NCBI GenBank assembly: GCA_963801165.1
Contig: CAWDDT010000009.1
Location: 160,001 to 224,000 of the forward strand
Length of the DNA: 64,000 nt
Origin: an uncultured bacterium
GTDB taxonomy: Bacteria > Actinomycetota > Acidimicrobiia > Spongiisociales > UBA5794
Direction: 5' to 3'
Under the pieces are notes generated by a model. The model did no database searches. It was not told where the DNA came from and worked only from the letters and a program-made list of their open reading frames with translations. Below, in pieces: positions 20,472 through 58,847 of the stretch; position 1 is the first letter of the stretch, and each line of letters opens with the position of its first letter. Made by a program: the position numbers and the translations under genes.

Positions 20472-21410
20472 TCATCGCCGCAGTCGCGCCGGGAGAATCG
20501 TCTTCCCACGCTTTGCCGCCCATTTGCCGCGCTCGATCGTGGCACGGAACCGTGCTCCGAGCGTCGGGTGAGTGCCTCTCGTCTCATAGCCGAGATCGCG
20601 CAGCAGATCGCCTGCGATGGCCTCGAAGATGGCGATGTCACGGTCGGTCATCGCCTCGGACCAGTCCCGGGTTCCCGTGGTCGGAGGGCGGGCGACATTG
20701 CGGAACGCCTCGGGCTCATGAGAGCTGGCAACGAACTCGTCCGCGTTCTCGTGATAGCGCAGCATCGCCGGTTGCCACGTGAGGTCGAGGAACTCGCAGA
20801 TGCGGCGCACTTCGGTCTCTGTGTCTGCCACGAGGTCTTCATAGCGAACTTCCGTATACCGTGACGGGCCGAGCGCCAGGCCCGCGCTGCGGCCTCGACT
20901 CACCCGGGAGCGCCAGTACAGAGCACCTTCGGCCAGGGTCGATGGTCCCCACGGTCGCTCTATATAGGAGAGCGCGACGTTACGACCGTCGCGTATTACG
21001 TTCACGAACCGGGCCTCCGGGAAGAGCCGGGCGAGCTCCGGGATCTGGATGATATAGCCCGGGGTCTTGTCGCCGTACCGCGGCTTGTCCTGTGCGGCTG
21101 CCCAGAGCACAAAGACGGCTCGCACCGCATCCGACAGGGTCTCCGGCGGCTGTGCCGCCATTGCTGCTTGGACCGCGGATCGTTCCAGCCCCATCCGGCG
21201 ATAGTTGGGGTTCTTGTAGATCGTGTCGAGGAAACGCCCCACCTGAAAGCCGCCCGCGGTAAGCATCCGCTCCTTGCGCGCCACGGTTCCGATGAACTGG
21301 GGTTCGTGCGCCACCGCCAGGTCGGGATGGGCGTCGAAGATGGTTCGCAGCAATGTCGTCCCGGATCTGCCGCTGCCGACAAAAATCGGGAAGGCGTCTT
21401 GTTGGCTCAC
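20472..21410 (-). CDS. Sulfotransferase (Sulfotransfer_3-like)
   Basis: 5'-PSB 'FVGSGRSGTTLL', 'YGDKTPGY', 3'-PB 'IRDGRNVALS', 'VRYEDLV'. Confidence 0.92.
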   Translation of the reverse strand: MSQQDAFPIFVGSGRSGTTLLRTIFDAHPDLAVAHEPQFIGTVARKERMLTAGGFQVGRFLDTIYKNPNYRRMGLERSAVQAAMAAQPPETLSDAVRAVFVLWAAAQDKPRYGDKTPGYIIQIPELARLFPEARFVNVIRDGRNVALSYIERPWGPSTLAEGALYWRSRVSRGRSAGLALGPSRYTEVRYEDLVADTETEVRRICEFLDLTWQPAMLRYHENADEFVASSHEPEAFRNVARPPTTGTRDWSEAMTDRDIAIFEAIAGDLLRDLGYETRGTHPTLGARFRATIERGKWAAKRGKTILPARLRR

Positions 21411-22420
21411 TACAGGACGTCGAGCTCACGCAGGATGCGGGCGAACTCGGCGCCGACCGGTTGCATTCCCTCTGCGGTGAAATGGGCGAAGTCGACCTGT
21501 TCGTCGACACCCGCTTGCTTGAGAATCCGATCGACGTCCACGACGTGGAAGTCCAGCTGCTTGGAGAGCTCGAGAAGAGCGATGTGGAACTCGCGGCGGC
21601 GGGTGACGTTGGCCTGCTTCACGAGCTGGTAGTTGTGGGTGAGGTCTTGTGGGTCAACCACCAGGGTCGTGTAGACGACCGGCTCGGCGTGGGCCCGGGC
21701 GCGCAGCTCCTTGACGATCGTTCTGACGTTTGCCATGTAGTCGTCGATCGAAATCCGTCCGACCTTCTCGTATTCCTTGCGAAACCACTGTACGTTGTCG
21801 AGGTCGCCGAGTACCTCGTTGAGGTTCTGGTTTAGCCACCAGCCACCGGGGTCAACCACAAACCCGTGCTTCTTGTTGCGATAGAGGGTGCGAATGACAT
21901 CGGTGCCACCCGACATCACGACGACGTTGCGAGGGAACTCGCCGTACCGCTTCTCGAGCGGGTATTGCAGCGAAGACCCGAAGAACGTTGGTTTGAATTG
22001 CTCGGGCCTGATCTTGAGACGGCGGCACAGCTCCTCGATGGCGTCGCGGGGAATGTTGCCCAGGGTCTGCACGACCTGACTGGTGGCATATGCACCGACA
22101 CCCCCGCCGCGCTCGCGGGATATGGCGAGGCTTCCCTTGATGCCCTCACGCATCAACGGAGCCCCGGTGAACACCGAAGGCAGGTCACAGCCCCCCCGGA
22201 GGGCCACGCCGCGTCTTGGTCCGTCGAAGGCCTCGTTCTCGCCGATCAGCACGAACCCGTTCCCGGCCTTCTGGACCCACCCGGGTCCCGACTCCGTCGC
22301 CACCCTGCCGCGGGCCTGCTTCATATAACGCCGTTTGAGGAAACGTTCGACCTTCGAGTCTTCGCCTGCCACCGACCGCAAGGCACGGTGGCCCAGTTTC
22401 AATCCTTTGGAGACGGGCAT
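21410..22420 (-). CDS. Uncharacterised cytoplasmic SGNH-like protein, type B, copy 1
   Basis: 'VALRGGCD', 'LYRNKKHGFVVDPGGWW', 'VVDVDRILKQAG..QVDFAHF' (D-x-x-H); clear paralog of 27965-28927. Confidence 0.7.
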   Translation of the reverse strand: MPVSKGLKLGHRALRSVAGEDSKVERFLKRRYMKQARGRVATESGPGWVQKAGNGFVLIGENEAFDGPRRGVALRGGCDLPSVFTGAPLMREGIKGSLAISRERGGGVGAYATSQVVQTLGNIPRDAIEELCRRLKIRPEQFKPTFFGSSLQYPLEKRYGEFPRNVVVMSGGTDVIRTLYRNKKHGFVVDPGGWWLNQNLNEVLGDLDNVQWFRKEYEKVGRISIDDYMANVRTIVKELRARAHAEPVVYTTLVVDPQDLTHNYQLVKQANVTRRREFHIALLELSKQLDFHVVDVDRILKQAGVDEQVDFAHFTAEGMQPVGAEFARILRELDVL

Positions 22421-22421
22421 C

Positions 22422-22847
22422 TCACTCCTCCTCGATGTCGACGGCGTTGGCGACAACCCTGATGGACGGAAGCGACGCGATGTCCTGGGCGGCTTCCCCG
22501 CCGGGCTCCCCGCCCGACGCGAGCAGCGCCAGCGTGTCCCCAACCTTCATCCCCCCGCCGGTCGCAACCAGATGCTCGAGGACCACACCGCCCTCGGACG
22601 CGACCAGCTGGAAGCGGAGACCGGATGTCTCACGTGTCTCCACCTCCTCGCGCACCTTCTTCTTGCGGCGCAGCGACGTGAGGATGCTTGCCTGCTGGGT
22701 CTTGCGCAGGGCGACTACTTGCTCGATGGAGACGACGCAGAGCTCGTCGCCAAAGATGAAGGATTCGCCCGGGGCCTTTGACCACTTGATCACGCGGCCG
22801 CCCTGGAGCTGGGGACCGACCGAGGGCATCTGGAGGGTCAGCTTCAT
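22422..22847 (-). CDS. Biotin/lipoyl-attachment-like domain protein with insertion in place of the DKA hairpin
   Basis: 'LQMPSVGPQLQGGRVIKWSKAPGESFIFGDELCVV...LVASEGGVVLEHLVATGGGMKVGDTLALL' follows the lipoyl-domain pattern. Confidence 0.72.
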   Translation of the reverse strand: MKLTLQMPSVGPQLQGGRVIKWSKAPGESFIFGDELCVVSIEQVVALRKTQQASILTSLRRKKKVREEVETRETSGLRFQLVASEGGVVLEHLVATGGGMKVGDTLALLASGGEPGGEAAQDIASLPSIRVVANAVDIEEE

Positions 22848-23536
22848 TGCCGTTCCCCGCGGGTGCCAACCTGCGCCACCAAAGTTCGCTCGTCGAAGAA
22901 CCCGTAGTCCGCGAGAACTCGCAATGTCTCGTCCCGCACCATCGCCGACCCCTCCGGCGAGAGCTCCAGCGGCCCGGGAACGACCTTGCCACCGCCCGCT
23001 TCGGCGACCAGCCGGTCGACGTCGATTACCGAGAGCCCGACCTCGTGGGAGGTTTGGAAGAGGGCAAGGTTGATGCGATGGGCACGAAGCATGATCGGCT
23101 CGACTGAAAACCCATGGAAATTGGAAACCGGGTCACCGGGGTCGAAGCTCGATACCCCGACCACGAGCACATGGGCACCGCAGTCTCGCTTGATCGCGTC
23201 GAACACGGCGACCAGGTCGTCATGGAAGCCGGCAACCGCATCCCGCGGGTCCTTCGCCCGGTTGGTGAGCTGCTCGGCCTCCCCGCTCACGTCGAGGACC
23301 ACGACATGTGGTGTAGATCCGTAGATCGATTCGAGGGTACCGGCGTCGAGCCGGGTGCGCAGGTCGCCTAGACCCCCGTACTCGTCGTATGTCACGGCCA
23401 GCTCGACGTTGGACGGTGTGGTGTTCAGCTCGGTGGCCAAGCCGTGATCGAGATGGGCCCCACCGTCGTTCTTGGCCAGGAACGCGTTGCGCACGACGTC
23501 GCCACCAAGCGCCAGCACACGCATCGTTTCGGTCAT
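22844..23536 (-). CDS. Uncharacterised SGNH-like protein, type A (degenerate), copy 1
   Basis: 'VSSFDPGDPVSNFHG...RAHRINLAL...GLSVIDVDRLVAEAGG'; paralog of N-part of 28938-30002. Confidence 0.65.
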   Translation of the reverse strand: MTETMRVLALGGDVVRNAFLAKNDGGAHLDHGLATELNTTPSNVELAVTYDEYGGLGDLRTRLDAGTLESIYGSTPHVVVLDVSGEAEQLTNRAKDPRDAVAGFHDDLVAVFDAIKRDCGAHVLVVGVSSFDPGDPVSNFHGFSVEPIMLRAHRINLALFQTSHEVGLSVIDVDRLVAEAGGGKVVPGPLELSPEGSAMVRDETLRVLADYGFFDERTLVAQVGTRGERQ

Positions 23537-23613: not shown

Positions 23614-24513
23614 CTAAATGCCCCAACCCAAGTCAAAGTCCAGCAGTTGTTCCAGATCGCGGTTGGAGTCGGCGTAGCGTGCTGCGAGCTCGGAGCCGAC
23701 CGGCTCGGGAATGTTGGGCTTCTCCAAGGGCTTCCTGGCATAGCTGTAGTTACGGAACTCGGACGGCGACCAGCGGGCGGCACCGACGAAGTCGAGTATC
23801 TCCTGGAGCACCGCACCGGGGTCGGCGAAGAACTCGGAACTCTCGAGGATGAGGAAGTTCTCCCTCGGAAAATGCTCGAACCAGCGACGCAATTGCTCGG
23901 CGTAGAACCCGCGCGTCGCATACGAGTAGCGACGAAACGGCATCACCCTCGCCAGCGGATCCCGTTTCATCTCATCGAGCTGTCCGGCGAGACGATCCTG
24001 CTCGGCAGCAATTGCGTCGGGGAACGACAGCTCCTCCAAACCGAGGCGGGCCATGTGGTGGTAGTGGGAGAAGGCCCGTTCGACGGGCTCGCGCAGCAAG
24101 ACGACGAGCTTGGCGTCGGGAAGCAGACTGCGGAGACGCTCGGGAGCCCGGGGATCGAAGAGGTAATCGGGGGTTGCCTCGAACGTGAGCAGCGATCTCC
24201 CCATGGCCCGGTGCAGCAGCCGTCTCATCTTCAGGGGATAGTGGGCCCGGTACCAGGCTTCCCCCCGGCCGTAGCCGATGGTGAAGTACTCGATCTCCTT
24301 GCGCAGCGACGGTGCTATTTCGGGGTGCCGGCCGAGGTACTTGTACAGAGAGCTGGTCCCGCAACGCTGCCCACCGATGATCACGAAGTCGGGGAGCATA
24401 CGGTACCGGGCCGTGAGAGTGCGCAGACGCAATCTGATGCGCACCAGCTTGCGGCGAGCAGCCATGGGCGTGACGGTCTTCAAGGCGTCGACGGCCCGCT
24501 GCCGCCAACTCAT
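23614..24513 (-). CDS. Sulfotransferase (heparan-sulfate N/3-O-sulfotransferase-like fold)
   Basis: 'LPDFVIIGGQRCGTSSL', 'KEIEYF', 'FEATPDY', 'LLREPVERAFSHY', 'GFYAEQLRRW'. Confidence 0.92.
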   Translation of the reverse strand: MSWRQRAVDALKTVTPMAARRKLVRIRLRLRTLTARYRMLPDFVIIGGQRCGTSSLYKYLGRHPEIAPSLRKEIEYFTIGYGRGEAWYRAHYPLKMRRLLHRAMGRSLLTFEATPDYLFDPRAPERLRSLLPDAKLVVLLREPVERAFSHYHHMARLGLEELSFPDAIAAEQDRLAGQLDEMKRDPLARVMPFRRYSYATRGFYAEQLRRWFEHFPRENFLILESSEFFADPGAVLQEILDFVGAARWSPSEFRNYSYARKPLEKPNIPEPVGSELAARYADSNRDLEQLLDFDLGWGI

Positions 24514-24661
24514 CGGCGAATACCAAACATCACAAGCCCCTCCCACCCCGGCGGTTGAGCGGGCAGCGTAACATCGCCGGACCGGTCGCAAGGGCCGGAT
24601 GCCCGATACTGTGGGGTCCGCGGGGCAGCCGCGCGACCGCCTCCTATAGTGACCAGGAATC

Positions 24662-25267
24662 ATGACCAACCAGAAGGTCTTTGGCATCGGTTTTCACAAG
24701 ACCGGGACGACGTCGCTGGCCCGTGCGCTCCGGGTTCTTGGCTACCGTGTCGCCGGTCCGTTTGGCGTCCATGATGCCGACATCTCCGCCACGGTGGTCG
24801 CCCGTGCGATCGAGACCGCCGGTGAGTGGGATGCCGCCCAGGACAATCCATGGCCGATCGTGTTCCGCGACCTCGATCGTGCGTTCCCCGACTCCAAGTT
24901 CATCCTCACGACCCGTGTCACCGATGATTGGCTGCGCAGTGTCGTTCGGCACTTCGGGGGTACGACGACCCCGATGCGGGAATGGGTGTACGGGGTCGGC
25001 GACCCGGCCGGTAACGAGAGTGTCTACAGGGAACGGTACGAGCGGCACAACCGTGAAGTCGTGGAGTATTTCGCAGAGCGACCGCAGGACCTGTTGGTGT
25101 TCCGGCTTGCGGATGGTGACGGGTGGGAGGAGCTGTGTGGATTCCTCGGTGTTGCCGTACCCGAGCAGCCGTTCCCGCACGCCAACGCTCGCGGGGAGCG
25201 AAGCACGATGCGCGTGCTGACTCGTCGGGCACGCCGCATACTGGGACTTGGTCCTAGGCGCCCTTGA
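24662..25267 (+). CDS. Sulfotransferase (Sulfotransfer_4-like)
   Basis: 'KVFGIGFHKTGTTSL', 'KFILTTR...WLRS', 'DGWEELCGFLG...FPHAN'. Confidence 0.9.
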   Translation: MTNQKVFGIGFHKTGTTSLARALRVLGYRVAGPFGVHDADISATVVARAIETAGEWDAAQDNPWPIVFRDLDRAFPDSKFILTTRVTDDWLRSVVRHFGGTTTPMREWVYGVGDPAGNESVYRERYERHNREVVEYFAERPQDLLVFRLADGDGWEELCGFLGVAVPEQPFPHANARGERSTMRVLTRRARRILGLGPRRP

Positions 25268-26114
25268 TCGCTGCCGCCAGCCAGTCGGCCGATTTGTCGG
25301 CGAGAGTGTTAGCAGCGTGATGACGGTCTTGCGACACCTGTTCCGCCAGCCACCACGGCTCGCTGCCGGTGCGGTCTTGATTTGCCACGTCGATGCCGGC
25401 GTGTGACCACGCCTCCACGATCGGTTCCATGTTGAGCGATCCAAAGGGAACGATCATCACCTTGGTCTCCAGCGGGGTGTAGTCGCTCAGTTTCTTTCCG
25501 GCGATGCTGTTGTGAAACGCCGACGTGATCTCGTAGCCGAGCAGCTCGACCACTCCGTCCTGGTCCAGCCGCTTCAATACCTTGTCCAGCGATTCGGGCT
25601 TGGCCTCGGCTTTGAGAGCCGCGATCGCGTGGCTACGCACCGCATCGCGAATGAATGCGTCCGTGTCCGGAATAGGATCCCACAGCAAGATCGCGGTGCC
25701 CGCCTCCTCCTCGGCGAGCGCCGCCGCGGGGTAGGCGCCCAGCCGAACCGCGGCGTAGCCGACCCGGTCCAACCCGGTTCGTTCCTTCAAGCGCGACCTC
25801 ACCTCGCGACCAGCGTCGATCATCGCCGGGAGCGTGAGGTCGGTGTCGAGCCCTTCGCTGTTGCCGTCGCCGCGGTATTGGAAACGATGGACTGCGATGC
25901 CGCGGGCCGCCAGAGCGCGGGCGAGTACGACCTCGAGGTGATACGCCTTGAGCATCTCGGCATGGGTGGAGCTGCAAATGACTACGGCGCCTTCGATCTC
26001 GCCGGCGGGAAGGTGGATGCTGCCCAACATCTGGGGGGCTTCGCCGAAGTAGGCGATCTCCTCGGTGATCCCGGTGATCGGGTGGCGACGGGTTGCAGCG
26101 ACGTTCGTCGTCAT
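25254..26114 (-). CDS. Alpha/beta-hydrolase fold protein, exosortase-associated 'hydrolase 2'-like (no nucleophile)
   Basis: 'HRFQYRGDGNSEG', elbow 'YAAVRLGA', 'ILLWDP'. Confidence 0.75.
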   Translation of the reverse strand: MTTNVAATRRHPITGITEEIAYFGEAPQMLGSIHLPAGEIEGAVVICSSTHAEMLKAYHLEVVLARALAARGIAVHRFQYRGDGNSEGLDTDLTLPAMIDAGREVRSRLKERTGLDRVGYAAVRLGAYPAAALAEEEAGTAILLWDPIPDTDAFIRDAVRSHAIAALKAEAKPESLDKVLKRLDQDGVVELLGYEITSAFHNSIAGKKLSDYTPLETKVMIVPFGSLNMEPIVEAWSHAGIDVANQDRTGSEPWWLAEQVSQDRHHAANTLADKSADWLAAAIKGA

Positions 26115-27055
26115 GGGGTCATCTCCTCCACCCACGCCACCGAGGTCTTGATGACGATGTCCTGGATGCGTACCGAGAGGAAGCCTCTGACGACTCCGGG
26201 CACGACCTCGACCGCGACCAGATCGGCGAACCGTTCCAGTTCCCTGCCCAGCCGGGCCTCGCTGGCCTCCTGAAACTCGGTCCAGAAGAAATCATCGTCG
26301 CCGTAGAGAAAACGGACGGGCACGCCATCGCTCAAGAGCCGGCGCAATGGGCGGTGAAAACCGGGGTCGGCATCTCGGGGGTCGGAATCACCGGCCGTCT
26401 CCTGCCTCTTGTCCGCCGCGTCACGGGAAACGCCGAGCTTCCTGGCAACGATCCGCACCGCGGCCTTGCGTGCGGTCGGATTCTTTGCCAGCTTGCGGAC
26501 GATGCGTTTCGAGAAAACCCTTTTCGCCAACTCCCCGGTGCTGACGTGCTCGGCGAGGTGGTCTGCGCCACCTACCCCTTTGGTGCCACTTCGGGTCGGC
26601 GGAGCGAATAGGTACAGACCGCGGACCCTCGGGTCGCCGGCCGCCCCGTGCAGTGCTCCTCTCGACCCGTAGCAGGTGGCGATCACGAGTATGTCGGTGA
26701 CCCCACGCGAGGCGAGCAAATCGAACGCAGCCTTAGCTTCGGGTACCGCGGGGGTCTCGAGCTCGTAGCAGAAGGGCTCGCCGATGCTGTCGCCGAGACC
26801 GGTGTAGTCGAGACGAAGGACCGGGTATCCGCGCTCGGCCAGCGATCGAGCCAGCTTCAACCACATGCGGTTGCGCCCGAGCGTTGTGGTGCCGCCGAAC
26901 GTGCCCGACATCAGCAGCACGCCGGTCGTTTTCGGCTCGACTTTGGTTGGCTCGCTGAGCAAGCCGAAAATCGTCTTATCCGGTTCCGGGAAGAAGACCG
27001 GCATGTCTCTGGACAGGGCCTCAATTGGCTGGTCAGTGCTCACATCGACCGTCAC
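26111..27055 (-). CDS. Alpha/beta-hydrolase fold protein, exosortase-associated 'hydrolase 1'-like (Cys at elbow)
   Basis: 'GRNRMWLKLARSLAERGYPVLRLDYTGLGDSIG', elbow 'ATCYGS', 'FLYGDDD'. Confidence 0.78.
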   Translation of the reverse strand: MTVDVSTDQPIEALSRDMPVFFPEPDKTIFGLLSEPTKVEPKTTGVLLMSGTFGGTTTLGRNRMWLKLARSLAERGYPVLRLDYTGLGDSIGEPFCYELETPAVPEAKAAFDLLASRGVTDILVIATCYGSRGALHGAAGDPRVRGLYLFAPPTRSGTKGVGGADHLAEHVSTGELAKRVFSKRIVRKLAKNPTARKAAVRIVARKLGVSRDAADKRQETAGDSDPRDADPGFHRPLRRLLSDGVPVRFLYGDDDFFWTEFQEASEARLGRELERFADLVAVEVVPGVVRGFLSVRIQDIVIKTSVAWVEEMTP

Positions 27056-27173
27056 GCGCAAGTCCCCCTTGCCTGGCTTTGCGTGCGGGGATTGTATATC
27101 GCCACCTCTCTGGCCCACTACAAGTTGCACGTCGCTGCCCTGTAGTCGGTCCCCCGGTTAGTATCGCTCGCTC

Positions 27174-27958
27174 ATGGAGATGGCGAAGCGCGCGCGTATG
27201 ATCTTGTGGCCGGCACTCGCTGCGGTCTTGTTGGTGACAGCATGCTCGGGGACCACCACTGCGACGACGACGTCCTCTACCGAGCCGCCCGGCACCTCGA
27301 CGACGGTGGCCGACACCACAACTCCACCAACTACCGCAGCGACGACGACATCGACCACATCTACGACGGCTGCGGTCACTCAGGAAGGAGCGGGACACGG
27401 GTCCGGGATCATCGGGATCGTTGGGTGCTCCAACTCGGCGATGGCCGCAGCCGGCTACGACGTGGTCTCCGCCAAGGACTATCTGACGCAGGGGGGTCTC
27501 ACCGGGGGATCCATTGCCGTCTGGGGCAATCCGGGCCCCGCCCGGTACGACCGCTACTGGGGGCTGTACGACGACCGGCGGCCCACCGATGGCTACACCG
27601 CCACCTGGTTCCAGCTGTGTATCCGGACCACGGAGCACAAAGGGAGCTTCAACGACGAGATCAAGGGCTGGATACAGCACGTTGTCGACCAGATCCACGA
27701 GCGCGATCCCGGGATCCCGATCTGGATCTCCCCGGTCAACAGCTACACCGATGGACTGGTGTGCCCCACGATCGGAGAAGAAGGTGCGGCCATCGCCACC
27801 GAGGCTGCTGATTGGGCGGCGGGGAACGTCTCCGGGGTGGAGCGGGGACCCGACCTGGGCCCGATCCACGCCGACGAGCTCGACCCGGGCGAGCAATGTC
27901 ATCCAAATCTGACGGGGCAGAGCGCCCTCGGGGAGCAGCTAGTCGCGTTCTTCGATTA
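27174..27958 (+). CDS. Lipoprotein with Thr-rich linker and SGNH-like domain
   Basis: Lipobox 'LLVTAC', poly-Thr, 'IVGCSNS', C-terminal 'QCHPNLTGQ'. Confidence 0.72.
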
Positions 27959-27964
27959 GGAGCG

Positions 27965-28927: not shown

Positions 28928-28937
28928 CTGACGTTCC

Positions 28938-38543: not shown

Positions 38544-38555
38544 CGGTGGGCTCTC

Positions 38556-40688: not shown

Positions 40689-40711
40689 CTGAATCGCACC
40701 TTCTTTGTCTG

Positions 40712-50612: not shown

Positions 50613-52874
50613 ATGACAAGAAGGCTCCGTTCGGTCACTGTCACCGGGCTATCGCTGGCCGGTATGCTCATCGCCGCCCTCCTCGTGGCAGTGCCGGCTC
50701 CACCCGCTGCCGCGGCGGCAAGTCGGGTACTCCACGACGGTGAGAGCTTTCCCAACGGTTTCACCGTTCCGGCAGGGGAGGTCTGGGAGCTCGATCCCAA
50801 CGCCGACACCAAGGTGACCACGTCCGGCAACGTTGTCGTGCTCGGCACATTGCGGATGCGGCCGAATTCAGCAGACATCGAGCAATTCCTTCAGTTCACC
50901 AATATCGACGAATCGAAATTTGTCGGAGGTGGTTCGAGCCACAACGACACCCCGAACGACATTGGGCTCTGGGTCGAGGACGCAGGCGTTCTCGATATCT
51001 CGGGCACCCCCGTCGTTCCCTGGTCCTACGACTGGCAATCGGGCTGGTCGGCTGCAGATGACATCGTCGCCGCACCGAACACACCGGGCGACTACACGAC
51101 GTTCAGCCAGGTGGACGGACCGGGCGACGTGCCTGCACCGAATACACTCGGCTACAAGACCGAGTTGCTCAACTTGACCAGGAACGTCCGGATCGAAGGT
51201 ACACCCACCGGGCGGGCTCACGTCCTGATCCACTCGTCCTCACCGCAGACCATCCGCTACGCAGCTCTTCGCTATATGGCACCGTGGATCGGTAAACACG
51301 ACTCGGGGCGCTACGGGCTGCATTTCCACCACAACCACGATGGTTCCCGCGGGTCGGTCGTCGAGGGCGTTGTGATCCGCGATACGAACAACCACGCCTT
51401 TGTGGTCCACGCCTCGCACGGGGTGACAGTGACCAACACCATCGCCTACAACGTGACGTCCGAGGCCTACTGGTGGGACGAGTCAACCAGCGAAGCTTGC
51501 GGCGACAACACCGGATGTAACGAGACCTTCGATCTCGTGTACGACCATATCGTCGCCGCCAAGATCACTCCGAACCCGGACCGCCCTCATGAGGCTTCTG
51601 CCATTCAGCTCGGGGGTGGCGAGAACATGACCATCACCGGGGCGGTAGTCGTGGGCATGCTCGACAGCGGCCAGAACGTATCTGCATACACGTGGCCGTC
51701 GAACGACAAGGGGATCTGGAACTTCACCGACAACAAGGCGCACAACAACCAGAGCCACGGGGTCTTCGTGTGGCAGAACTCCGCCGGCGAAGATGACGAG
51801 AACCATCTGGTCGACGGTCTTACCGCCTACTACAACGCCAAATCCGGCATCAACCACGGCGCCTACGGAAACTCCTACGTGTACCGGAATCTGACCCTTC
51901 TCGAGAACGCCCAGGATCCCTCGCTCGGTGAGCAATACGACGCCGCCATCAACTCGCACGCCCTTGGGAAGAAATCCCGAACGACGACGGGCCCGGGCGC
52001 CACCGACACGCAGGAGTGGAGCGGCGTCAACACGGGCGGGGCGAGGCTGCTCATTCTCGGGCACAACACCCCCCTCGAGCACAACGTGCGTTTCATGTTC
52101 TGCGATTTCTCCGAGATCCTGTTCAACGAAGTCGGCGGCAACAACGGTGGCGGCTACGACTTTATCGAGTGTGGCCTCGACCCGACCGACTTCGATCGCA
52201 CCGGCATCCACCCCGACACCGTGATCCGGGTCCAGGACGGTGACAGTGCATACCAATTCGTCGGCACTGGCCCGGTGCAGACCATTTCACCGTTCTATGA
52301 CAACCCGCAGCCGCCCCCTCCTCCTGGTGCGGATCCCGGCTTTATCGATACGAGCGCCTCGGTGTTCCGCGCCGACATCGAGTGGCTGGCTGCCGAGGGG
52401 ATAACTCAAGGGTGCAATCCGCCCGTCAACAATATGTTCTGTCCCGACCAGTTCGTTACACGAAGCCAGATGGCTGCGTTCCTCACCCGGGCTCTCGACC
52501 TTCCCGCGGGTGCCGGCAATCCGTTCATCGACGACGATGGCAGTGTCTTCGAGGGCCCCATCGAGTCACTGCAAGCTGAGGGAATCACTCAGGGCTGCAA
52601 TCCGCCGCTCAACAATATGTTCTGTCCCGGTGATTATGTGACCAGGGGCCAGATGGCGGCGTTCCTGGGACGTGCGCTTGCTCTTCCAGCAGGGTCGGGC
52701 AATCCGTTTGTCGACGACAACGGGAATCTATTCGAGGTTGCGATCGAGTCGCTGGCGGCATCCGGGATAACCCATGGCTGCAACCCGCCGATAAACGACC
52801 GTTTCTGCCCCGACTCGTACGTGACCAGGGGCCAGATGGCGGCATTCCTGCACCGGGCTTCTCTTTACTTCTAG
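50613..52874 (+). CDS. Secreted G8-like/right-handed beta-helix protein with three SLH repeats
   Basis: Signal peptide; 'NLTRNVRIEG', 'GRYGLHFHH', 'HAFVVHASHGVT' (G8/CEMIP-type beta-helix motifs); C-terminal SLH x3. Confidence 0.78.
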   Translation: MTRRLRSVTVTGLSLAGMLIAALLVAVPAPPAAAAASRVLHDGESFPNGFTVPAGEVWELDPNADTKVTTSGNVVVLGTLRMRPNSADIEQFLQFTNIDESKFVGGGSSHNDTPNDIGLWVEDAGVLDISGTPVVPWSYDWQSGWSAADDIVAAPNTPGDYTTFSQVDGPGDVPAPNTLGYKTELLNLTRNVRIEGTPTGRAHVLIHSSSPQTIRYAALRYMAPWIGKHDSGRYGLHFHHNHDGSRGSVVEGVVIRDTNNHAFVVHASHGVTVTNTIAYNVTSEAYWWDESTSEACGDNTGCNETFDLVYDHIVAAKITPNPDRPHEASAIQLGGGENMTITGAVVVGMLDSGQNVSAYTWPSNDKGIWNFTDNKAHNNQSHGVFVWQNSAGEDDENHLVDGLTAYYNAKSGINHGAYGNSYVYRNLTLLENAQDPSLGEQYDAAINSHALGKKSRTTTGPGATDTQEWSGVNTGGARLLILGHNTPLEHNVRFMFCDFSEILFNEVGGNNGGGYDFIECGLDPTDFDRTGIHPDTVIRVQDGDSAYQFVGTGPVQTISPFYDNPQPPPPPGADPGFIDTSASVFRADIEWLAAEGITQGCNPPVNNMFCPDQFVTRSQMAAFLTRALDLPAGAGNPFIDDDGSVFEGPIESLQAEGITQGCNPPLNNMFCPGDYVTRGQMAAFLGRALALPAGSGNPFVDDNGNLFEVAIESLAASGITHGCNPPINDRFCPDSYVTRGQMAAFLHRASLYF

Positions 52875-52896: not shown

Positions 52897-54459
52897 TCAC
52901 GCGATGTGCTGCTTGAGCAATGTTTGCCGGTCGATCTTGCCGGTGGAGGTCTTGGGGAGCACCGTTGTGACCAGTATCGCCTCGGGAACCATATATCGCT
53001 GGATCCGTGCTGCACAGAACGAAGTCAACTCCCGTTCCGTGACCTCGCCGGACACGGAGACGTAGGCGACGATCCGGTTCGAGATCATCTCGTCGGGTAT
53101 CGCAAGCGCGGCGGCCTCGACCACCCCCGGATGGGCGTTTAGCGCAGCCTCGATATCGCCGAGCTCGATGCGGTAGCCGCGGCTCTTGATCTGGTTGTCG
53201 CGGCGTCCTAGGAAGCGGTAGTTGCCGTCCGGCATTTCCTCAACGAGATCACCGGTGCGATAAACCGGATCGCCGTGATGGCGGGCGACCGGACTCGTGA
53301 TCAGCCGGGTCCTGGTTCGCTCCGGATCACCCCAATAGCCGGCCATCACGGTCGGGCCTCGTACCAGCAGCTCGCCGACCTCGCCCGGTTGGACGAGGTT
53401 GTCCCCCTCGTCGACTACGAACGTCTCGACATTGGTGATCGCATGACCTATCGAGATGGTTGGCCCGTCCTCGTCCGGTGATTCGGGCACAGAATAGGCA
53501 GTGCACACGTTTGTTTCCGTAGGCCCGTAGAGGTTGGCGAAGGCCACGTGTGGCAGCCGTTTCATGATCCGGGACAAGTACTTGGTGGGGAACACCTCTC
53601 CGGCAAATAGCATCTGCCGGAGACTGGGAAGGTCACCGACCTCGAGACCGCCCTTTTCGATCAGCATGATCAATATCGACGGCACCGAGTACCAGACCGT
53701 GATCTCGTTGGTCGTGATGAACTTGGCGACCTCGGCCGGGAAGAGTGCCGCCTTTGCCGGGACCAAATACACGGGTGCACCCGACAGCGCAGCCGAGTAC
53801 AAATCGAAGGTCGACAGGTCGAAGTGGAACGGCGCATGGCTGGAGATGCGATCCTCGCTCGTGATCGAATATTCGTCGATTGCCCACTCGACGAATGCTC
53901 TGCAGTTGAGATGCGACAGCATGACGCCTTTGGGGTCACCCGTCGATCCGGATGTGTAGAGGATGTAGGCGAGATCCTGGTCGATGATGCCCGGGTCGCG
54001 CGGTATGCCACCGGCCTCGATCCAGCTGGAGCGGTGTATGGATACGCCCGCCGCCGAGGCGGGCGTATCGGTGTCCATTGCCAGGACGTGCTCGACACCG
54101 GCCGTGCCCAGCCCCCCCCAGGCGCCGGCGCGCTTGGCGCCGCTGATGACATGGCGGATCCCGCAATTGTTGGCGATGTACTGGACCCGGGCTTCTGGGG
54201 CCGACGGATCGATCGGTACGTACGCAGCTCCCGCCTTCATAGCGCCGTAGATGCCGATGACACCCTCCGCAGCCTTAGGAAGGTAGATGCCGACGCGGTC
54301 ACCGGGTTGCACGCCCAGCTCGACCAGCCTGGCCGCTACGGCGTCGGACCTCTCGTCAAGCTCACGGTACGTGAGCTGCCGGTCCCGGTCGACGAGTGCG
54401 ATCGAGTCAGGCGCCCGTCGCGCCGAATCGCGTAGGTAGTGATGCAGGAGGTACTTCAT
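52897..54459 (-). CDS. Stand-alone adenylation domain, L-proline:carrier-protein ligase (PltF/RedM/CloN4-like)
   Basis: 'YILYTSGSTGDPKG', 'SHAPFHFDLSTFDLY', 'WYSVP', 'LFAGE', 'NLYGPTETNVC', 'YRTGD', 'PKTSTGKIDR'; pocket read by eye DLFYLALVCK. Confidence 0.87.
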   Translation of the reverse strand: MKYLLHHYLRDSARRAPDSIALVDRDRQLTYRELDERSDAVAARLVELGVQPGDRVGIYLPKAAEGVIGIYGAMKAGAAYVPIDPSAPEARVQYIANNCGIRHVISGAKRAGAWGGLGTAGVEHVLAMDTDTPASAAGVSIHRSSWIEAGGIPRDPGIIDQDLAYILYTSGSTGDPKGVMLSHLNCRAFVEWAIDEYSITSEDRISSHAPFHFDLSTFDLYSAALSGAPVYLVPAKAALFPAEVAKFITTNEITVWYSVPSILIMLIEKGGLEVGDLPSLRQMLFAGEVFPTKYLSRIMKRLPHVAFANLYGPTETNVCTAYSVPESPDEDGPTISIGHAITNVETFVVDEGDNLVQPGEVGELLVRGPTVMAGYWGDPERTRTRLITSPVARHHGDPVYRTGDLVEEMPDGNYRFLGRRDNQIKSRGYRIELGDIEAALNAHPGVVEAAALAIPDEMISNRIVAYVSVSGEVTERELTSFCAARIQRYMVPEAILVTTVLPKTSTGKIDRQTLLKQHIA

Positions 54460-54460
54460 C

Positions 54461-55606
54461 TCATAGTCCCATGTGGCGGGCGATGATGTTCTTCTGGATG
54501 TCGTTTGTGCCCGAGTAGATTCGCCCGGCAATGGCATCCCGGACGTCGCGCTCGACTTCGGTCTCGGTCATGAACCCGAGTGCGCCGTAGATCGACACCG
54601 CATCGAGGCTGGATTGCAGGAACGACTCGCTGAGCTGCTGTTTGACCATGGCGGCGTCGAGTGCCGATGTCTCGCCCTGATCGAGGACCCATCCAAGCCG
54701 GTACAGCAGCAGGCGTGAGGTCTCCAGCCTGATCTTCATGTCCACCAGGCGGTGCGAGACAGCCTGGAACTTGCCGATCGGTTCGCCGAACTGACGTCGC
54801 TCTTTCGCATACGCGACGGCCTTCTCCAACTGGCGCTCCATCGTTCCGACCGCACTGGCGAGGATGCAGCTGCGTTCCCACTCGATGGAGTGGTTGAACA
54901 CCATCATGCCGGATCCGACTCTGCCCAGCAGATTCTCCTTGGGTACCCGGCAGTCGTTGAACGCAAGCTCGGACATGGGTGAGGTCCTGAGCCCCATCTT
55001 CTTGAAGTTGACGCCAACGTCGAGACCGGGCGTCCCCTTCTCAACGATGAAGGCGCACAAGCCGGCCCAACCCTTCGACCTGTCGATGCTGGCGAAGACC
55101 ACGAACAAGTCTGCAACCGGAGCGTTGGTGATGTAGGTCTTCGAGCCGTTGAGCACGTAGACGTCTCCGTCCAGCCGTGCGGTCGTCTTCAAGCTATACG
55201 CGTCGGAGCCCGAGTCCGGCTCGGTCATCCCCTGTACCGAGATCAGCGATCCGTCGTTGAGGCCCGGCAGGTATTTCGCCTTCTGCTCCTCGGTGCCGAA
55301 GCGATGAATCGGCATGGCCCCGGACCAGATGTGGGCGTTGATCGAGAAGATGAGTCCGTTGTCGGCGCAGCCGTAACCCAGACCCTCCATGGCCAGGATG
55401 GTGGTTAACGCGTCCGCTCCCTGACCGCCGTATTCCTCGGGAAATGGAAGACCCTGGATACCAATCTTTGCCGCTTTGACCCACGCTTCCCGAGAGAACT
55501 CGCTTGCCTGGTCGCGGTCGGCGACCCGATCGTTCAGCTCTTTCTGGGCAAACTCGACTACGGCAGCCCGATACGCGAGCTGCTCTTCGGTCCAACGGAA
55601 ATCCAC
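54461..55606 (-). CDS. Acyl-CoA dehydrogenase family, L-prolyl-carrier-protein dehydrogenase (PltE/RedW/CloN3-like)
   Basis: 'DNGLIFSINAHIW', 'MTEPDSGSD', 'GSKTYITNAPVAD', 'KMGLRTSPM', 'SIEWER', 'IYSGTNDIQK'; 1 bp from the A-domain gene. Confidence 0.85.
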   Translation of the reverse strand: MDFRWTEEQLAYRAAVVEFAQKELNDRVADRDQASEFSREAWVKAAKIGIQGLPFPEEYGGQGADALTTILAMEGLGYGCADNGLIFSINAHIWSGAMPIHRFGTEEQKAKYLPGLNDGSLISVQGMTEPDSGSDAYSLKTTARLDGDVYVLNGSKTYITNAPVADLFVVFASIDRSKGWAGLCAFIVEKGTPGLDVGVNFKKMGLRTSPMSELAFNDCRVPKENLLGRVGSGMMVFNHSIEWERSCILASAVGTMERQLEKAVAYAKERRQFGEPIGKFQAVSHRLVDMKIRLETSRLLLYRLGWVLDQGETSALDAAMVKQQLSESFLQSSLDAVSIYGALGFMTETEVERDVRDAIAGRIYSGTNDIQKNIIARHMGL

Positions 55607-55749
55607 TGCGTTTCCCCCTCTCCCGGGTGCGGCGGAAGTGTAACCATGGCTGCCCAGCGCTGGGCATGAAAAAGAATCCCTAGCCCATCGGGTGGTCTGC
55701 GTGCTTGAATTGCCGAGCCAATACGGCCAAACGAGGGGAATGCTTTCAG

Positions 55750-56907
55750 TTGAGTAGCACGGGTGGGTATGCCCGCATAGTCGTCGACGAGCTCACCAAG
55801 GTGTACGAGCCGTCGCCGCTCTGGATGCGGGCGTTGGTCAGAACAAACATCAAAGAGCCGGTCCACGCGCTCAATGGAGTCAGCTTCACCGTGGGCACAG
55901 GCGAAATTGTCGCTGTTGTCGGGCCGAACGGCGCGGGGAAGACGACAACCTTCAAGATACTGGTGGGCTTGACGACACCGACAGCGGGCTCGGCCAGCGT
56001 GATGGGATTCGACTCCATAAGGGAATCAGTCGAAGTGAGACGATCGATTGGTTGGATGCCCGGCGATCATCGCAGCTTGCTGATGCGACACTCCGTCATC
56101 GAGAACCTGAGGTTCCATGGCCGATTGCAGGGCATGTCCGGGCAGCCGCTGATCCGGAAGATCCGAGAGACCCTGGAGATGGTCGGGCTGGAAAGGCGTG
56201 CTCGGAGCAACGGGTTCTCGCTGTCGGCGGGAATGCTGGCCCGGCTGCAACTCGCCAGGGCTCTCCTTCACGACCCGGAGATCCTCATTCTCGATGAGCC
56301 GACTGGTGCCGTCGACCCGGTCGCCGCGCATGACCTCATCCAGTTGATCAAAGAGATCGTTGCCGAGAGGGGTATGGCGGCGCTGATCAGCTCGCACCGT
56401 CTGGAAGAGATCGAGACTCTGGACTCGCGCGTGCTGTTGCTCGACCACGGGCGGATTCGCTACGACGGGCGTCTCGACGAACTGCGCCGTATCTGGGACA
56501 AGCCCACTCTTCAGATCGGCTTCCGTTCCACCGCCAGTGCCGACGCAGCAGCACAGACCTTGAAGGAGGCCGGTTTCGCCAGCGTGAGTCGCAAGGACGG
56601 CTCGGTGACCTTCCCCTTGGAGAGCGGAGTCTCCCATGCCGACGTGCTCGCCCGGCTGCGCGGCCAAATCGAGGATATGACCGATCTGAGCGAGTCCCAC
56701 CGACCGCTGCAGACGGTGCTCGCCGAGCTCTATCGCACCGACCCCGAGGGCAGTGAAGGCGGCGGCCCGACCGGCGCACAGCCCGGCAACAGCGGTCAGG
56801 TGTCACCGGTCTCGAGAAGGGAGCGGGCCCGACCGGCCGATCTCCGGGGCGACGAGGGCGCGGCGGATCCAGCGTCTGTAGAAGGCGGCGAGGAGGTAGA
56901 GCGATGA
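55750..56907 (+). CDS. ABC transporter ATP-binding protein (ABC-2/DrrA type)
   Basis: 'GPNGAGKTT', signature 'LSAGM', 'ILILDEPT', 'SSH'. Confidence 0.92.
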   Translation: MSSTGGYARIVVDELTKVYEPSPLWMRALVRTNIKEPVHALNGVSFTVGTGEIVAVVGPNGAGKTTTFKILVGLTTPTAGSASVMGFDSIRESVEVRRSIGWMPGDHRSLLMRHSVIENLRFHGRLQGMSGQPLIRKIRETLEMVGLERRARSNGFSLSAGMLARLQLARALLHDPEILILDEPTGAVDPVAAHDLIQLIKEIVAERGMAALISSHRLEEIETLDSRVLLLDHGRIRYDGRLDELRRIWDKPTLQIGFRSTASADAAAQTLKEAGFASVSRKDGSVTFPLESGVSHADVLARLRGQIEDMTDLSESHRPLQTVLAELYRTDPEGSEGGGPTGAQPGNSGQVSPVSRRERARPADLRGDEGAADPASVEGGEEVER

Positions 56908-57737
56908 GCACCCGCAAGACACAAATGAGCACGCGTCAAGCCGTGGTCGCTACAGCCACCGCGTTCTTCCGGGTCGATGTGATCGAGGAAGCCAACTACC
57001 CGATCTCGTTTGCGATGCGTCTGCTCGGCGTGGTCGCACCGCTGATCCCGTTCTTCTTCATAAGCAAGCTCGTGGGCAACTCACCCGAGGTGGGTGGGGA
57101 CTACCTGACCTTCACCGTGATCGGTCTGGCCATGACTGCTCTTCTGACGGCCGCCATGGTCGGCTTCGGAAACACCCTCCAGCAGTCCTTCCAACGGGGA
57201 ACCATGGAGACCTTCCTGATCGAACCGGTTCCGTGGACCGCCATCCCGCTCGCGATGAACCAATGGCAGGTGATGAACGGGCTCATCTACACGGTGCTCC
57301 TGATGGGTGCCGGATGGGTCCTCGGCGCCCACTATCAGCTGGGCGGCGTCGGGGCCGCAATCCTGATCGCCCTGCTCGGAATCACAGCCGGTCTGGCGAT
57401 CGGGATCGTGTCCGCTGCGGTGCTGTTGCTGACGTTGAAGTCGACCCCGGTGATTCGGATATATGACATCGCTGCTTCGCTGCTCGCCGGGAGCCTGTTC
57501 TCGGTGGCGCAGCTTCCGGGGTGGGCCCAGGCGCTCAGTGTGGTGTTGCCGCATACCTACGTGATCAACGGGGTACGGACGGCGCTGATGGCGGACCCGG
57601 GGTCGTACGAGATCTCGTTGACCCGAGCGGTCGTTTCACTCGGGGTCTTCGATGTGGTCGTCTTCGCTTTCGGGATCTGGCTGTGGCGCCGAACCCTCGA
57701 GTACTCGAGGAAGATCGGCCTCCTGGGTGGGTACTGA
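56904..57737 (+). CDS. ABC-2 type permease
   Basis: Six TM, 'QRGTMETFL', 'LPGWAQALSVVLPHTYVINGVR'. Confidence 0.9.
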   Translation: MSTRKTQMSTRQAVVATATAFFRVDVIEEANYPISFAMRLLGVVAPLIPFFFISKLVGNSPEVGGDYLTFTVIGLAMTALLTAAMVGFGNTLQQSFQRGTMETFLIEPVPWTAIPLAMNQWQVMNGLIYTVLLMGAGWVLGAHYQLGGVGAAILIALLGITAGLAIGIVSAAVLLLTLKSTPVIRIYDIAASLLAGSLFSVAQLPGWAQALSVVLPHTYVINGVRTALMADPGSYEISLTRAVVSLGVFDVVVFAFGIWLWRRTLEYSRKIGLLGGY

Positions 57738-58847
57738 GCCGCGCGACACCGTCCTGTTCGTCTCGCTGCCGCAGGCGATCGGCGGCAGCAACCGCAGTCT
57801 GGTCACGCTGCTCGAGACGATCGAGGGCAAGGTCCGGCGGGTGCTTGCCTCGCCTCGCCCCGGGGCATTTGCCGACTTAGCGGCCGAGCGGAATGCGTTC
57901 GACGAATGGTTCGACCTCGCCAAAAAGGGTCGGCTCGGTCGGGTGCGCCGGCTGTGGGATGGGCTCCAGCTCGCGGTCTGGGCATTCCGCAACCGGGCGC
58001 GGCTGGCGGCGATACATGCGAACGCTATCACCGGTCTCAACGCGGTGGCCCTCGCCGCAATCGTGTCCCGGCGCCCGGTGGTCGCTTGGATTCACGACCC
58101 GGTCTCGACCCCGTGGAGCCGTAGGCTCGGGCCGTGGGTGCGCAGGCTGATTGCCGACCTTCGCATAACCGCGGTGTCCCCAACCGCTGAGGCGGTGGCG
58201 GTCGAAAGCGGTCTATGCGACCGCGGTACCGCGATCATCGTCCCCAATCCGCTCGACCCCAAGGACGTCGTCTTCACGAAACCGGAATATCACGAGGGTG
58301 TGACCATCGCCGTGCTGGGGGGCTCCACGAACCGCAAAGGCTTCGACCTGATTCCCGCGGTCGTCCGTGAGGTCGACGATCTGGCAGTGCAGTGGCGGCT
58401 GTACATCAAGCACGCCCCGACGCCCGAGAACGAGGATGTCTGGGCGCAGCTCGACGCCATGGGTTCCGTCTCGGTACCCGGGCGGATCTCCGATGTACGT
58501 CAAGCCTACGCAGGCGCCGATATCGTCTTTGTTCCTTCGCGGGAGGAGTCGTTCTGCCGGATCGCGGCGGAGGCTATGACCAACGGCGTCCCGGTGGTGG
58601 CCAGCGATATCCCTCCGCTGCGTTATCTGCTGGGCGACGGTGCGGGGCTGTTGTTTCCGGTTGCCGACGTCAAAGCTGCTGCTGCGGCGCTACGTGTGTT
58701 CGTCACCGATGCAGACGTCAGGCGCCACGCCGGCGCCATCGGCGTCGAGCGCGCCGCCAATTTCCAGCCGGACGGAGTGGCCGCCCAGATGCTCGAGCTA
58801 TATCGGTTGCCCCGGCGATCAAGACGCACCGGGGAAGTGACCACCTG
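57727..58847 (+). CDS. Glycosyltransferase family 4
   Basis: 'IGGSNRSL', 'RKGFD', 'PSREESFCRIAAEAMTNGVPVVASDIP'. Confidence 0.9.

Follow-up and report, generated by a model that had tools for sequence, protein, structure and literature searches.

Here we describe a ~38-kb locus of an uncultured member of the Acidimicrobiia that combines a sulfated-glycan gene set with a stand-alone adenylation (A) domain, an adjoining acyl-CoA dehydrogenase (ACAD) and a free peptidyl carrier protein (PCP). The locus lies in a 64,000-nt stretch of DNA (G000:C9:160001-224000, where G, C and L label our genomes, contigs and loci), which is called the window below and whose positions are used throughout. The host genome (4.55 Mb in 13 contigs; G+C ~64%) is 98.2% complete with 5.6% contamination, and gene calls in 20472-58848 come from Pfam and NCBIfam profile scans of long open reading frames (ORFs). 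We lean towards the reading that A domain, ACAD and PCP form a thiotemplated proline-oxidation cassette that serves glycan tailoring and not a nonribosomal peptide synthetase (NRPS) or polyketide synthase (PKS). Computation shows what the cassette proteins are, that they reside conservedly in glycan loci across Acidimicrobiia, that the genome holds no NRPS partner for them, and that a pair of alpha/beta-hydrolase proteins with conserved residues is linked to them in operons. To our knowledge, every characterised proline-to-pyrrole cassette feeds a small molecule such as an antibiotic or a pigment. If true, our reading predicts an undescribed glycan substituent, and carrier-protein chemistry in glycan tailoring would reach beyond D-alanylation. 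A literature search that left most subscription journals outside its reach found no description of a pyrrole or prolyl carrier-protein cassette linked to a polysaccharide.

In the mechanism that we propose, the A enzyme would activate L-proline and load the free holo-carrier protein, and the ACAD would oxidise the prolyl thioester to pyrrolyl-2-carboxyl-S-PCP or, as AnaB does, take it only to the two-electron dehydroprolyl stage. The cysteine of one alpha/beta hydrolase (hydr1), acting in a heterodimer with a second, nucleophile-less one (hydr2), would then accept the acyl group as a thioester. The next acceptor would be a hydroxyl or amine on a sugar of some cytoplasmic precursor, linked to a nucleotide, a lipid or an oligosaccharide, from which a sulfated glycan of the cell envelope would be made. 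The adjacent ABC-2 transporter would then export the glycan. More tentatively, and with somewhat less than even confidence, we propose that Acidimicrobiia decorate a sulfated envelope glycan with pyrrole-2-carboxyl groups made on a free carrier and transferred by a new two-subunit alpha/beta-hydrolase acyltransferase, with one Cys and one Arg subunit; the related hydrolases 1 and 2 of exosortase A systems would then likewise be carrier-dependent glycan acyltransferases. An earlier note, made from the sequence of this stretch alone, had proposed pyrrolyl or prolyl decoration of a surface glycan, and had named the substrate of the A domain, the grouping of the dehydrogenase and linkage to PKS or NRPS genes among the points on which the idea could fail. 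On each of these three, which computation can address, the analysis came out on the side of the proposal, as described below.

The A domain (52897-54459, minus strand) scored 397 bits against the amino-acid adenylation model TIGR01733 (cut-off 317), and its best single-A-domain match in the PDB was PltF (6o6e, 349 bits); higher scores of LgrA in the same search add up two A domains. The longest ORF begins at 54537; a start at its Met27 (54459) agrees with the alignment to PltF, which covers the protein from residue 30. This start lies 1 nt from the ACAD stop codon, and the A and ACAD genes are translationally coupled. When a 131-residue pocket fragment (53503-53895, minus strand) was searched against the PDB, the top matches were 6o6e (118.7 bits) and 7thn (100.9 bits), followed by DltA (73.6 bits); 6o6e and 7thn are the two solved L-proline--[L-prolyl-carrier-protein] ligases. 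The specificity residues read from the alignment, in what we take to be the GrsA numbering, are D-L-F-Y-L-A-L-V-C in the window, D-L-L-Y-L-A-L-V-C in 6o6e and D-L-F-Y-I-A-W-V-C in 7thn. The window pocket thus equals that of 6o6e at eight of nine visible positions and that of 7thn at the remaining one (Phe), and the tenth code position is a Lys within GKIDR. Among 17 orthologous A domains (51-85% identity), a count that left out 30 partial high-scoring pairs, the code reads DLFYLALVCK in 14, DLLYLALVCK in two and DLFYIAWVCK in one. Other codes (DMLYLGVQCK, DLLNLGVGCK) are carried by A domains beside NRPS-linked paralogues of the cassette. With a PltF/PigI-type pocket whose code is kept in orthologues, the pocket is of the proline type and not that for alanine or another amino acid, and 52897-54459 is predicted to encode an L-proline--[carrier protein] ligase of the PltF/PigI type.

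The free carrier protein (80 aa; 48570-48812, plus strand) matches PF00550 with 22.6 bits (cut-off 20.8) and has the phosphopantetheine serine motif IDSLG. Its homologues (55-87% identity) adjoin the A gene in relatives, where one was seen in 12 of 16 loci, and the host genome encodes two phosphopantetheinyl transferases (PPTases).

The best solved relatives of the ACAD (54461-55606, minus strand) are AnaB (4irn, 445 bits), Bmp3 (6cxt, 329 bits) and PigA (5zw0, 326 bits). A figure legend in PMC10849742 identifies 6CXT as Bmp3, and the same paper describes a conserved glutamate as essential in AnaB and Bmp3. The Glu of a WE(R/K) motif is common to the window ACAD, AnaB, Bmp3 and PigA, and all of these have Ser at the catalytic-Glu position of medium-chain ACADs, which gives the window protein the motif YSGT. 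That position was placed with what we take to be the medium-chain motif. The conserved, essential glutamate is presumably residue E244. PigA (NF053553) and RedW (NF045652) are the two top NCBIfam models for the window protein; the RedW cut-off is reached by no genome in a 401-genome sample of the phylum, in which the window score is the highest. Of the 150 nearest 50%-identity representatives, 71 were compared with the NCBIfam models at a threshold of E<=1e-105: 43 match only PigA and/or RedW, a true RedW (696 bits) and an AcrC-like protein account for one each, and 27 are unmatched. One representative carries the source name CloN3.

Trees were built with FastTree from 112 rows and with IQ-TREE (LG+C20) from 62 of those rows. 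Each row is a tblastn translation of 330 residues or longer. Double-length representatives are not among them, and 36 of the 150 representatives were used; L032, L034, L078 and L080 (both trees) as well as L082 and L086 (112-row tree) come from genomes flagged as unpublished. Twelve ordinary ACADs, made up of two paralogues from the host genome, Bcd-like proteins of Bacillota and the AcrC-like representative, split off with an SH-aLRT of 99 in IQ-TREE, and FastTree agrees. The window ACAD falls in an 18-row Actinomycetota clade of glycan-locus copies (SH-aLRT 98), and separate clades are formed by nine NRPS-linked copies (SH-aLRT 100) and by the RedW/CloN3 group (SH-aLRT 93). In line with the earlier expectation, then, trees, PDB and NCBIfam matches and the catalytic Glu all place the dehydrogenase with prolyl-carrier-protein dehydrogenases, apart from ordinary ACADs, and 54461-55606 is predicted to encode an enzyme of that kind. 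More than 120 protein clusters at an identity of at least 65% represent the glycan-type ACAD; all are generically named, those with a named organism are from Acidimicrobiia or Actinomycetota, and near-identical DNA is present in salt-marsh and soil metagenome runs. A 54%-identical ACAD occurs in Tundrisphaera lichenicola P12, a cultured planctomycete with a complete genome (L129). A small carrier-protein-like gene lies 4 kb from it, its surroundings also encode a polysaccharide export protein and an adenylating enzyme of the GH3 family, and no PltF-like A domain was found within 10 kb.

The host genome offers the cassette little to feed in the manner of an assembly line. Searches of the entire genome (98% complete) gave no condensation domain, and the profile searches of the window gave no match to a ketosynthase (KS), condensation domain or halogenase, in agreement with the earlier note. 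Only one amino-acid adenylation domain above cut-off and only one prolyl-dehydrogenase-like ACAD occur in the genome. Its sole match to a halogenase family (44 bits) lies 300 kb away, and none is convincing. The only KS megasynthase, on contig C2, has the order KS-AT-(KS-like)-4xACP-KR-DH and is a lipid system resembling a polyunsaturated fatty acid (PUFA) synthase. In this region (L183, G000:C2:595-18115) the 2867-aa PUFA-synthase-like gene stands beside a single-chain, eukaryote-like acetyl-CoA carboxylase (1844 aa), an ACAD and an NMO-type reductase, and a PPTase is encoded at the start of the contig.

Conservation of the gene context tells the same story across relatives. Among 60 related genomes, 13 carry an ACAD at 61-93% identity to that of the window, and a further five hold a copy at 47-53% alone; both types are present in six of the 13. 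Sixteen loci of the high-identity type could be viewed with their flanks (G003, G016, G034, G029, G028, G038, G047, L103-L107, L118, G216, G204 and G229; the G204 and G229 genomes are unpublished). Every one of them has its ACAD and A genes surrounded by homologues of glycan genes of the window, be they GT4, sulfotransferase, ABC-2, S-layer homology (SLH), CE4, PglF or WecA genes. The recurrent order is a block of 230-aa protein, SGNH-like protein and sulfotransferase, then GT4, ABC-2 permease and ATPase, then ACAD, A and PCP, and then GT4-GNAT, PglF, WecA and GT4. The ABC-2 pair stands beside the triad in eight of the 16, and a second A-domain-like gene nearby is absent from 15, G034 being the exception. 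The window and G003 have SLH genes between PCP and A, whereas those of G016, G028, G047, L104, L105, L106 and L118 stand beside the triad. The glycan core block (34382-46676) also occurs without the triad in G017 (99% complete), where it stands alone as PglF-WecA-GT4-GNAT-GT4-membrane protein-GNAT-GT4-Wzc-CE4.

The 47-53% copies have a different setting. Both G016:C7 and Leptolyngbya sp. PCC 7375 have such a copy between an upstream ornithine cyclodeaminase gene and downstream condensation-A-PCP (C-A-PCP) modules, which indicates that these copies belong to true NRPS clusters, and a metagenome-assembled genome of the Pyrinomonadaceae (L114) has the same NRPS-type arrangement. The linkage of the triad to glycan genes, on which the earlier proposal depended, thus holds in every one of the 16 loci, 15 of them with no second A-domain-like gene nearby, and the NRPS-linked triads form a paralogous clade of their own. 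As an element in its own right, the cassette ornithine cyclodeaminase-ACAD-A-PCP (L069/L070 in G016:C7, L110 in the Leptolyngbya strain, and L114) spans Acidimicrobiia, marine Leptolyngbyaceae and one acidobacterium, and its Acidimicrobiia copies are accompanied by a UDP-glycosyltransferase, a sulfotransferase, a GT4 and a homologue of the hydrolase pair.

As for the enzyme that would move the acyl group, our best candidate from sequence comparison is the hydrolase pair at 25254-27130. It is made up of hydr2 (25254-26135, minus strand), an alpha/beta-hydrolase-like protein with Arg at the nucleophile position, and hydr1 (26111-27130, minus strand), an alpha/beta hydrolase with a Cys nucleophile. 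Their best NCBIfam matches are hydrolase 1 and hydrolase 2 associated with exosortase A systems, TIGR03100 for hydr1 (67.7 bits; cut-off 168) and TIGR03101 for hydr2 (60.2 bits; cut-off 202.75). In G216 the order DegT aminotransferase-ACAD-PCP-hydr2-hydr1-A runs on one strand with minimal gaps; the order is A-hydr1-hydr2-PCP-ACAD in G204 and hydr2-hydr1-ACAD-A-PCP in G229, and in G047 the pair lies 9 kb from the triad. The nucleophile elbow of hydr1 has Cys in 20 of 20 aligned homologues, and the corresponding position of hydr2 has Arg in 18 of 18. In the subclade of the window protein, hydr1 carries Arg at the catalytic-His position (VVRGF), a position at which His is retained (HGF) in the proteins of G216, G047 and G053; neither group departs from Cys as the nucleophile.

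Structure prediction gave a hydr1-hydr2 heterodimer with a score of 0.90 (best control, 0.01), a value reached by 116 of 157 solved complexes and by two of 215 mismatched pairs. Three runs agreed in at least 75% of contacts with a pLDDT of at least 86 for the partners, using alignments of our own for which this calibration is only rough. The predicted interface takes in conserved loops of both proteins near the active-site region of hydr1. The model supports binding of hydr1 to hydr2, and hydr2 is probably its non-catalytic partner. The hydr1 fold model is alpha/beta (pLDDT 81.5). A Foldseek search with it returned only generic alpha/beta-hydrolase folds at TM-scores of 0.5-0.6, which do not tell transferases from hydrolases, and a PDB sequence search with hydr1 likewise returned generic alpha/beta hydrolases only. 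In G053:C8 (L189, 5600-9650), a PCP gene adjoins two hydr2-hydr1 pairs arranged in tandem within a glycan locus, and neither an A nor an ACAD gene was found in 40 kb of sequence; acyl groups of other kinds, bound to a carrier, may therefore be served by the pair.

A second transferase candidate is the SGNH-like family (21410-22543, minus strand, with a paralogue at 27965-28999, minus strand), which occurs in 12 of the 14 genomes that bear an orthologous ACAD. The GT4-GNAT fusion (43792-45555, minus strand; GNAT domain C-terminal) is present in all 14 and in the triad-less G017 as well. We rejected the GNATs as pyrrolyl transferase, since both the fusion and the 460-aa GNAT (34382-35764, minus strand) occur in G017 without the triad and are thus not tied to the cassette. 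Phyletic profiles of the pair, the GT4-GNAT and the SGNH-like family over the 60 relatives singled out no partner because the whole locus is co-inherited. Of the transferases put forward in the earlier note, the hydrolase pair has therefore gained, since G216, G204 and G229 each have it in a common operon with the triad and its Cys is invariant, and the GNATs have lost support.

The exporter genes, an ABC-2 ATPase (55705-56907, plus strand; PF00005, with DrrA- and NodI-like models) and permease (56904-57737, plus strand; PF01061), adjoin the ACAD-A pair divergently and are co-transcribed with a GT4 gene (57652-58848, plus strand; PF13692/PF00534). This adjacency suggests a cytoplasmic modification step, acting on a precursor that the exporter moves. 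The DegT gene in the G216 operon, together with the PglF-like dehydratase of the locus, suggests N-acylation of a 4-amino-6-deoxy sugar. That the acceptor is a glycan and that the group is pyrrolyl, as opposed to dehydroprolyl or prolyl, are inferences, and so are the idea that the CE4 enzyme would supply free amines, the transfer chemistry and its topology. PAPS synthesis genes (CysD/CysN/CysC) are found on contig C7. The only MBOAT gene of the genome is on C7 too, paired with a gene for an AlgX-like SGNH protein and without a carrier protein, which looks like an ordinary O-acetylation pair. This pair (L212, G000:C7:176000-192000) stands beside dTDP-rhamnose genes and CysD/CysN/CysC.

A number of observations weigh against assigning the cassette to glycan tailoring, or against parts of that assignment. 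The ACAD falls under both equivalog cut-offs (PigA, 469-471 vs. 500; RedW, 444 vs. 650). AnaB, its closest solved relative, presumably stops at the two-electron product, and pyrrolyl is for that reason not a secure product for the window ACAD; we know of no sequence marker that separates two-electron (AnaB) from four-electron (PltE, RedW, Bmp3) enzymes. The hydrolase pair lies 21 kb from the PCP gene in the window, and the Arg at the catalytic-His position makes the activity of the window hydr1 uncertain. It was not seen in five of the 14 genomes with an orthologous ACAD, including the near-complete G038 (100%) and G034 (96%); weak matches to it in G016, G029 and G058 sit in the NRPS-type cluster, and G042 and G053 have the pair without the ACAD. 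No sugar aminotransferase is encoded in the window, the two of the genome being on other contigs, and the adjacent exporter scores best with DrrA-type models, that is, those for small molecules. Finally, G034 has an NRPS-type cluster no more than ~15 kb away from its glycan-type pair, so that cross-talk is possible there.

In a rival reading, the cassette and part of the locus would make no polymer but a secreted small glycoconjugate, such as a pyrrolyl- or prolyl-acylated sulfated oligosaccharide or glycolipid made by a Nod-factor-like logic, or free pyrrole-2-carboxylate released by the hydrolase pair. We regard this as unlikely but worth serious consideration. The exporter beside the triad matches DrrA models best and NodI models too, CE4, sulfotransferases and a carrier-bound acyl donor occur together, and the module of sulfotransferase, GT4, ABC-2 and triad is separable from the Wzc/PglF/WecA block that stands alone in G017. 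WecA-like, PglF, Wzc-like and SLH genes nevertheless flank the triad in many relatives, which points to undecaprenyl-linked envelope polymers, and ABC-2 exporters are established movers of wall polymers too. For the free acid, the mainly hydrolytic nature of the alpha/beta-hydrolase fold has to be set against the invariant Cys (not Ser) of hydr1 and its nucleophile-less partner, which fit transfer better than plain hydrolysis. The target might also be narrower than a sulfated envelope glycan in general, namely the glycan of an SLH or S-layer protein or the secondary cell-wall polymer that anchors it, with the proline-derived group capping the non-reducing end and ending chain growth in an ABC-transporter-dependent pathway. 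To this special case of glycan tailoring we assign a low probability. SLH genes do lie between PCP and A in the window and G003 or beside the triad in seven further loci, and the 400-aa exporter ATPase extends ~110 residues beyond its ABC domain; yet Pfam scans of the window gave no Wzt-type carbohydrate-binding domain, pyruvyl transferase or oligosaccharyltransferase, and the examined flanks of L103, L107 and G038 contain no SLH gene.

Two further explanations dispense with either the oxidised product or the glycan. Dlt-like aminoacylation, with proline left unoxidised or some other amino acid joined to the polymer as an ester and a different role for the ACAD, seems very improbable to us. 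DltA models do give the A enzyme 283-297 bits, the pocket fragment matches DltA next after the proline ligases, and the PCP weakly matches DltC models, but the DltA scores are far under cut-off (296.7 vs. 476; 282.9 vs. 559.85) and the pocket is of the Pro type. Moreover, an ACAD with the catalytic Glu of prolyl dehydrogenases is translationally coupled to the A gene, and the only MBOAT gene of the genome is on another contig with its AlgX-like partner and no carrier protein. We give the least credence of all, and very little in absolute terms, to the view that the triad is an ordinary starter cassette for an unrecognised PKS or NRPS elsewhere in the genome or the community, with its position in a glycan locus being incidental. 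All characterised members feed small-molecule pathways, according to established knowledge and to PMC10849742; the genome is 98%, not 100%, complete, with 5.6% contamination, a large KS-containing synthase is present on contig C2, and G034 has its NRPS cluster close by. What decides us against it is that the genome has no condensation domain, that the C2 synthase has a PUFA-synthase architecture beginning KS-AT, that the glycan context is kept in 16 of 16 orthologous loci from several families, and that the NRPS-linked triads form their own clade with different A-domain codes.

Compared with described systems, the glycan-tailoring cassette would be a composite. The same three parts are found in PltF/PltL/PltE (pyoluteorin), PigI/PigG/PigA and RedM/RedO/RedW (prodiginines), Bmp4/Bmp1/Bmp3 (bromopyrroles) and CloN4/CloN5/CloN3 (aminocoumarins). 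Unlike those cassettes, that of the window has no KS, condensation-domain, halogenase or thioesterase partner beside it and no C domain in its genome, and it lies in a sulfated-glycan locus; its ACAD belongs to an Actinomycetota clade of its own, under the PigA and RedW equivalog cut-offs. In other words, the three proteins have the sequence-level features of a thiotemplated pyrrole cassette, whereas the defining downstream partner is absent and equivalog scores are not attained. As regards AnaC/AnaD/AnaB of anatoxin-a, AnaB aligns end to end with the window ACAD (4irn, 445 bits) and shares an identical NHS-EWER segment, but its product feeds a PKS. In the aminocoumarins, CloN7/CouN7, an enzyme of the alpha/beta-hydrolase fold, moves pyrrolyl-2-carboxyl from the carrier protein onto the sugar noviose. 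The logic is alike in that a carrier-bound pyrrolyl group would reach a sugar hydroxyl through an alpha/beta-hydrolase fold, a comparison of fold class and logic only. The window candidate differs in having two subunits, a Cys nucleophile and a nucleophile-less partner, and its acceptor would be an envelope glycan precursor. A CloN3-like locus in G448 contains no homologue of the hydrolase pair.

The exosortase A accessory set (TIGR03098 ligase, TIGR03100, TIGR03101 and acyl carrier protein, ACP) likewise unites a ligase, a carrier and two unlike alpha/beta hydrolases in exopolysaccharide loci. All three window proteins fall below the cut-offs of its models (332 bits vs. 592 for the A enzyme against TIGR03098), the window genome lacks an exosortase (no Exosortase_EpsH match), its ligase is a Pro-code A domain, and an ACAD is added. 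Judged by these scores, the hydrolase pair and the A enzyme are distant homologues of the set and not members of it. Dlt systems (DltA/DltC/DltB/DltD) also employ a stand-alone A enzyme and a small carrier for a wall polymer; the window locus differs by lacking an MBOAT protein, by its Pro-type and not D-Ala pocket, by the added oxidising flavoenzyme and by transfer that is probably cytoplasmic. Carrier-dependent N-acylation of sugars is known from the Nod factor (NodB, NodA, NodF, NodH, NodIJ) and from perosamine tetronylation in Vibrio cholerae O1. With the Nod factor the window shares CE4, a carrier-borne acyl donor, sulfotransferases and a NodI/DrrA-like ABC-2 exporter, and the G216 operon is headed by a DegT sugar aminotransferase gene; the window itself has no NodA or NodC homologue and no sugar aminotransferase, and its acyl group would be derived from an amino acid. 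By analogy, the system may work as a hybrid of a pyrrole cassette, sugar acylation of the CloN7 type, and the exosortase-associated ligase, ACP and hydrolase set. For the alpha/beta-hydrolase pairs found with a ligase and a carrier protein in exopolysaccharide loci of the exosortase type, the proposal would offer a testable function. Glycan loci that hold the triad would be misreported by genome-mining tools as orphan NRPS-like clusters.

The remainder of the locus agrees largely with the gene inventory of the earlier note, most items of which were recovered by Pfam and NCBIfam at or near the places it had given; Wzy was not confirmed, and the Wzc and SGNH labels are weak. In total, the locus encodes five sulfotransferases, five GT4 domains, two GNAT domains and two SLH proteins. 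The sulfotransferase genes lie at 20472-21410 (minus strand; PF13469, 125 bits), 23614-24687 (minus strand), 30095-30886 and 30874-31770 (both plus strand; these three PF13469/PF00685), with a fifth at 24662-25267 (plus strand; PF17784, 124.9 bits). Pfam identified GT4 genes at 35328-36422 (minus strand), 37350-38543 (plus strand) and 45552-46676 (minus strand), a CE4 deacetylase (36568-37389, plus strand), the PglF-like dehydratase (40712-42679, minus strand) and a WecA-like initiator (42845-43804, minus strand), as well as the two GNAT proteins described above. The Wzc-like assignment of 38556-40688 (minus strand) is a weak one (TIGR01007, E 2.3e-4; two transmembrane segments). Two polytopic membrane proteins recognised by hydropathy, with no Pfam or NCBIfam match (32151-33002, plus strand, ~10 transmembrane segments; 33006-34925, minus strand, ~9), are possible polymerase, ligase or flippase candidates, and the latter is kept in the glycan blocks of relatives.

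The SLH proteins are encoded at 48966-50522 and 50613-52874 (both plus strand; PF00395/PF24606). The positional candidate for Wzy, 46591-48192 (plus strand), has only two predicted transmembrane segments and is, by cross-matches, a paralogue of the N-terminal part of the SLH protein at 48966-50522. It has an N-terminal and a C-terminal transmembrane segment and 33% identity to that N-terminal domain, without the SLH repeats, and its homologue adjoins the PCP gene in several relatives.

The name SGNH-like derives from a weak PF13472 match of 21410-22543 (24.9 bits; cut-off 32.9) and from automatic cluster names. The closest Atlas clusters bear the name SGNH/GDSL, and clusters of TviD_N and DUF6270 resemble the protein less; all of these are leads only, and a PDB sequence search gave no match. 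The partner of this protein is a 230-aa protein of unassigned function (22844-23536, minus strand). The second SGNH-like protein (27965-28999) is linked to the first family by cross-matches at 38-49% identity and shared motifs, and it too has a partner protein (28938-30002, minus strand). Thus 21410-23536 and 27965-30002 are two paralogous two-gene cassettes, each with a 230- or 354-aa protein followed by an SGNH-like protein, and a motif (V/I)D(V/A)D(R/G) is common to all four proteins. Between them, 27174-27959 encodes a probable lipoprotein (signal peptide with LLVTAC) with a long Thr/Pro-rich stretch, which has 58% identity to its counterpart in the G038 locus.

Outside the glycan locus, an aldehyde dehydrogenase gene at 16617-18132 consists of two overlapping ORFs (profile positions 1-147 and 183-461), reflecting a frameshift or an assembly error. 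The one tRNA gene that ARAGORN called in the window is a tRNA-Pro (656-732); it called no tRNA-Sec. Genes for SelB and SelA are adjacent at 4152-7809, and from this arrangement the organism probably makes selenoproteins.

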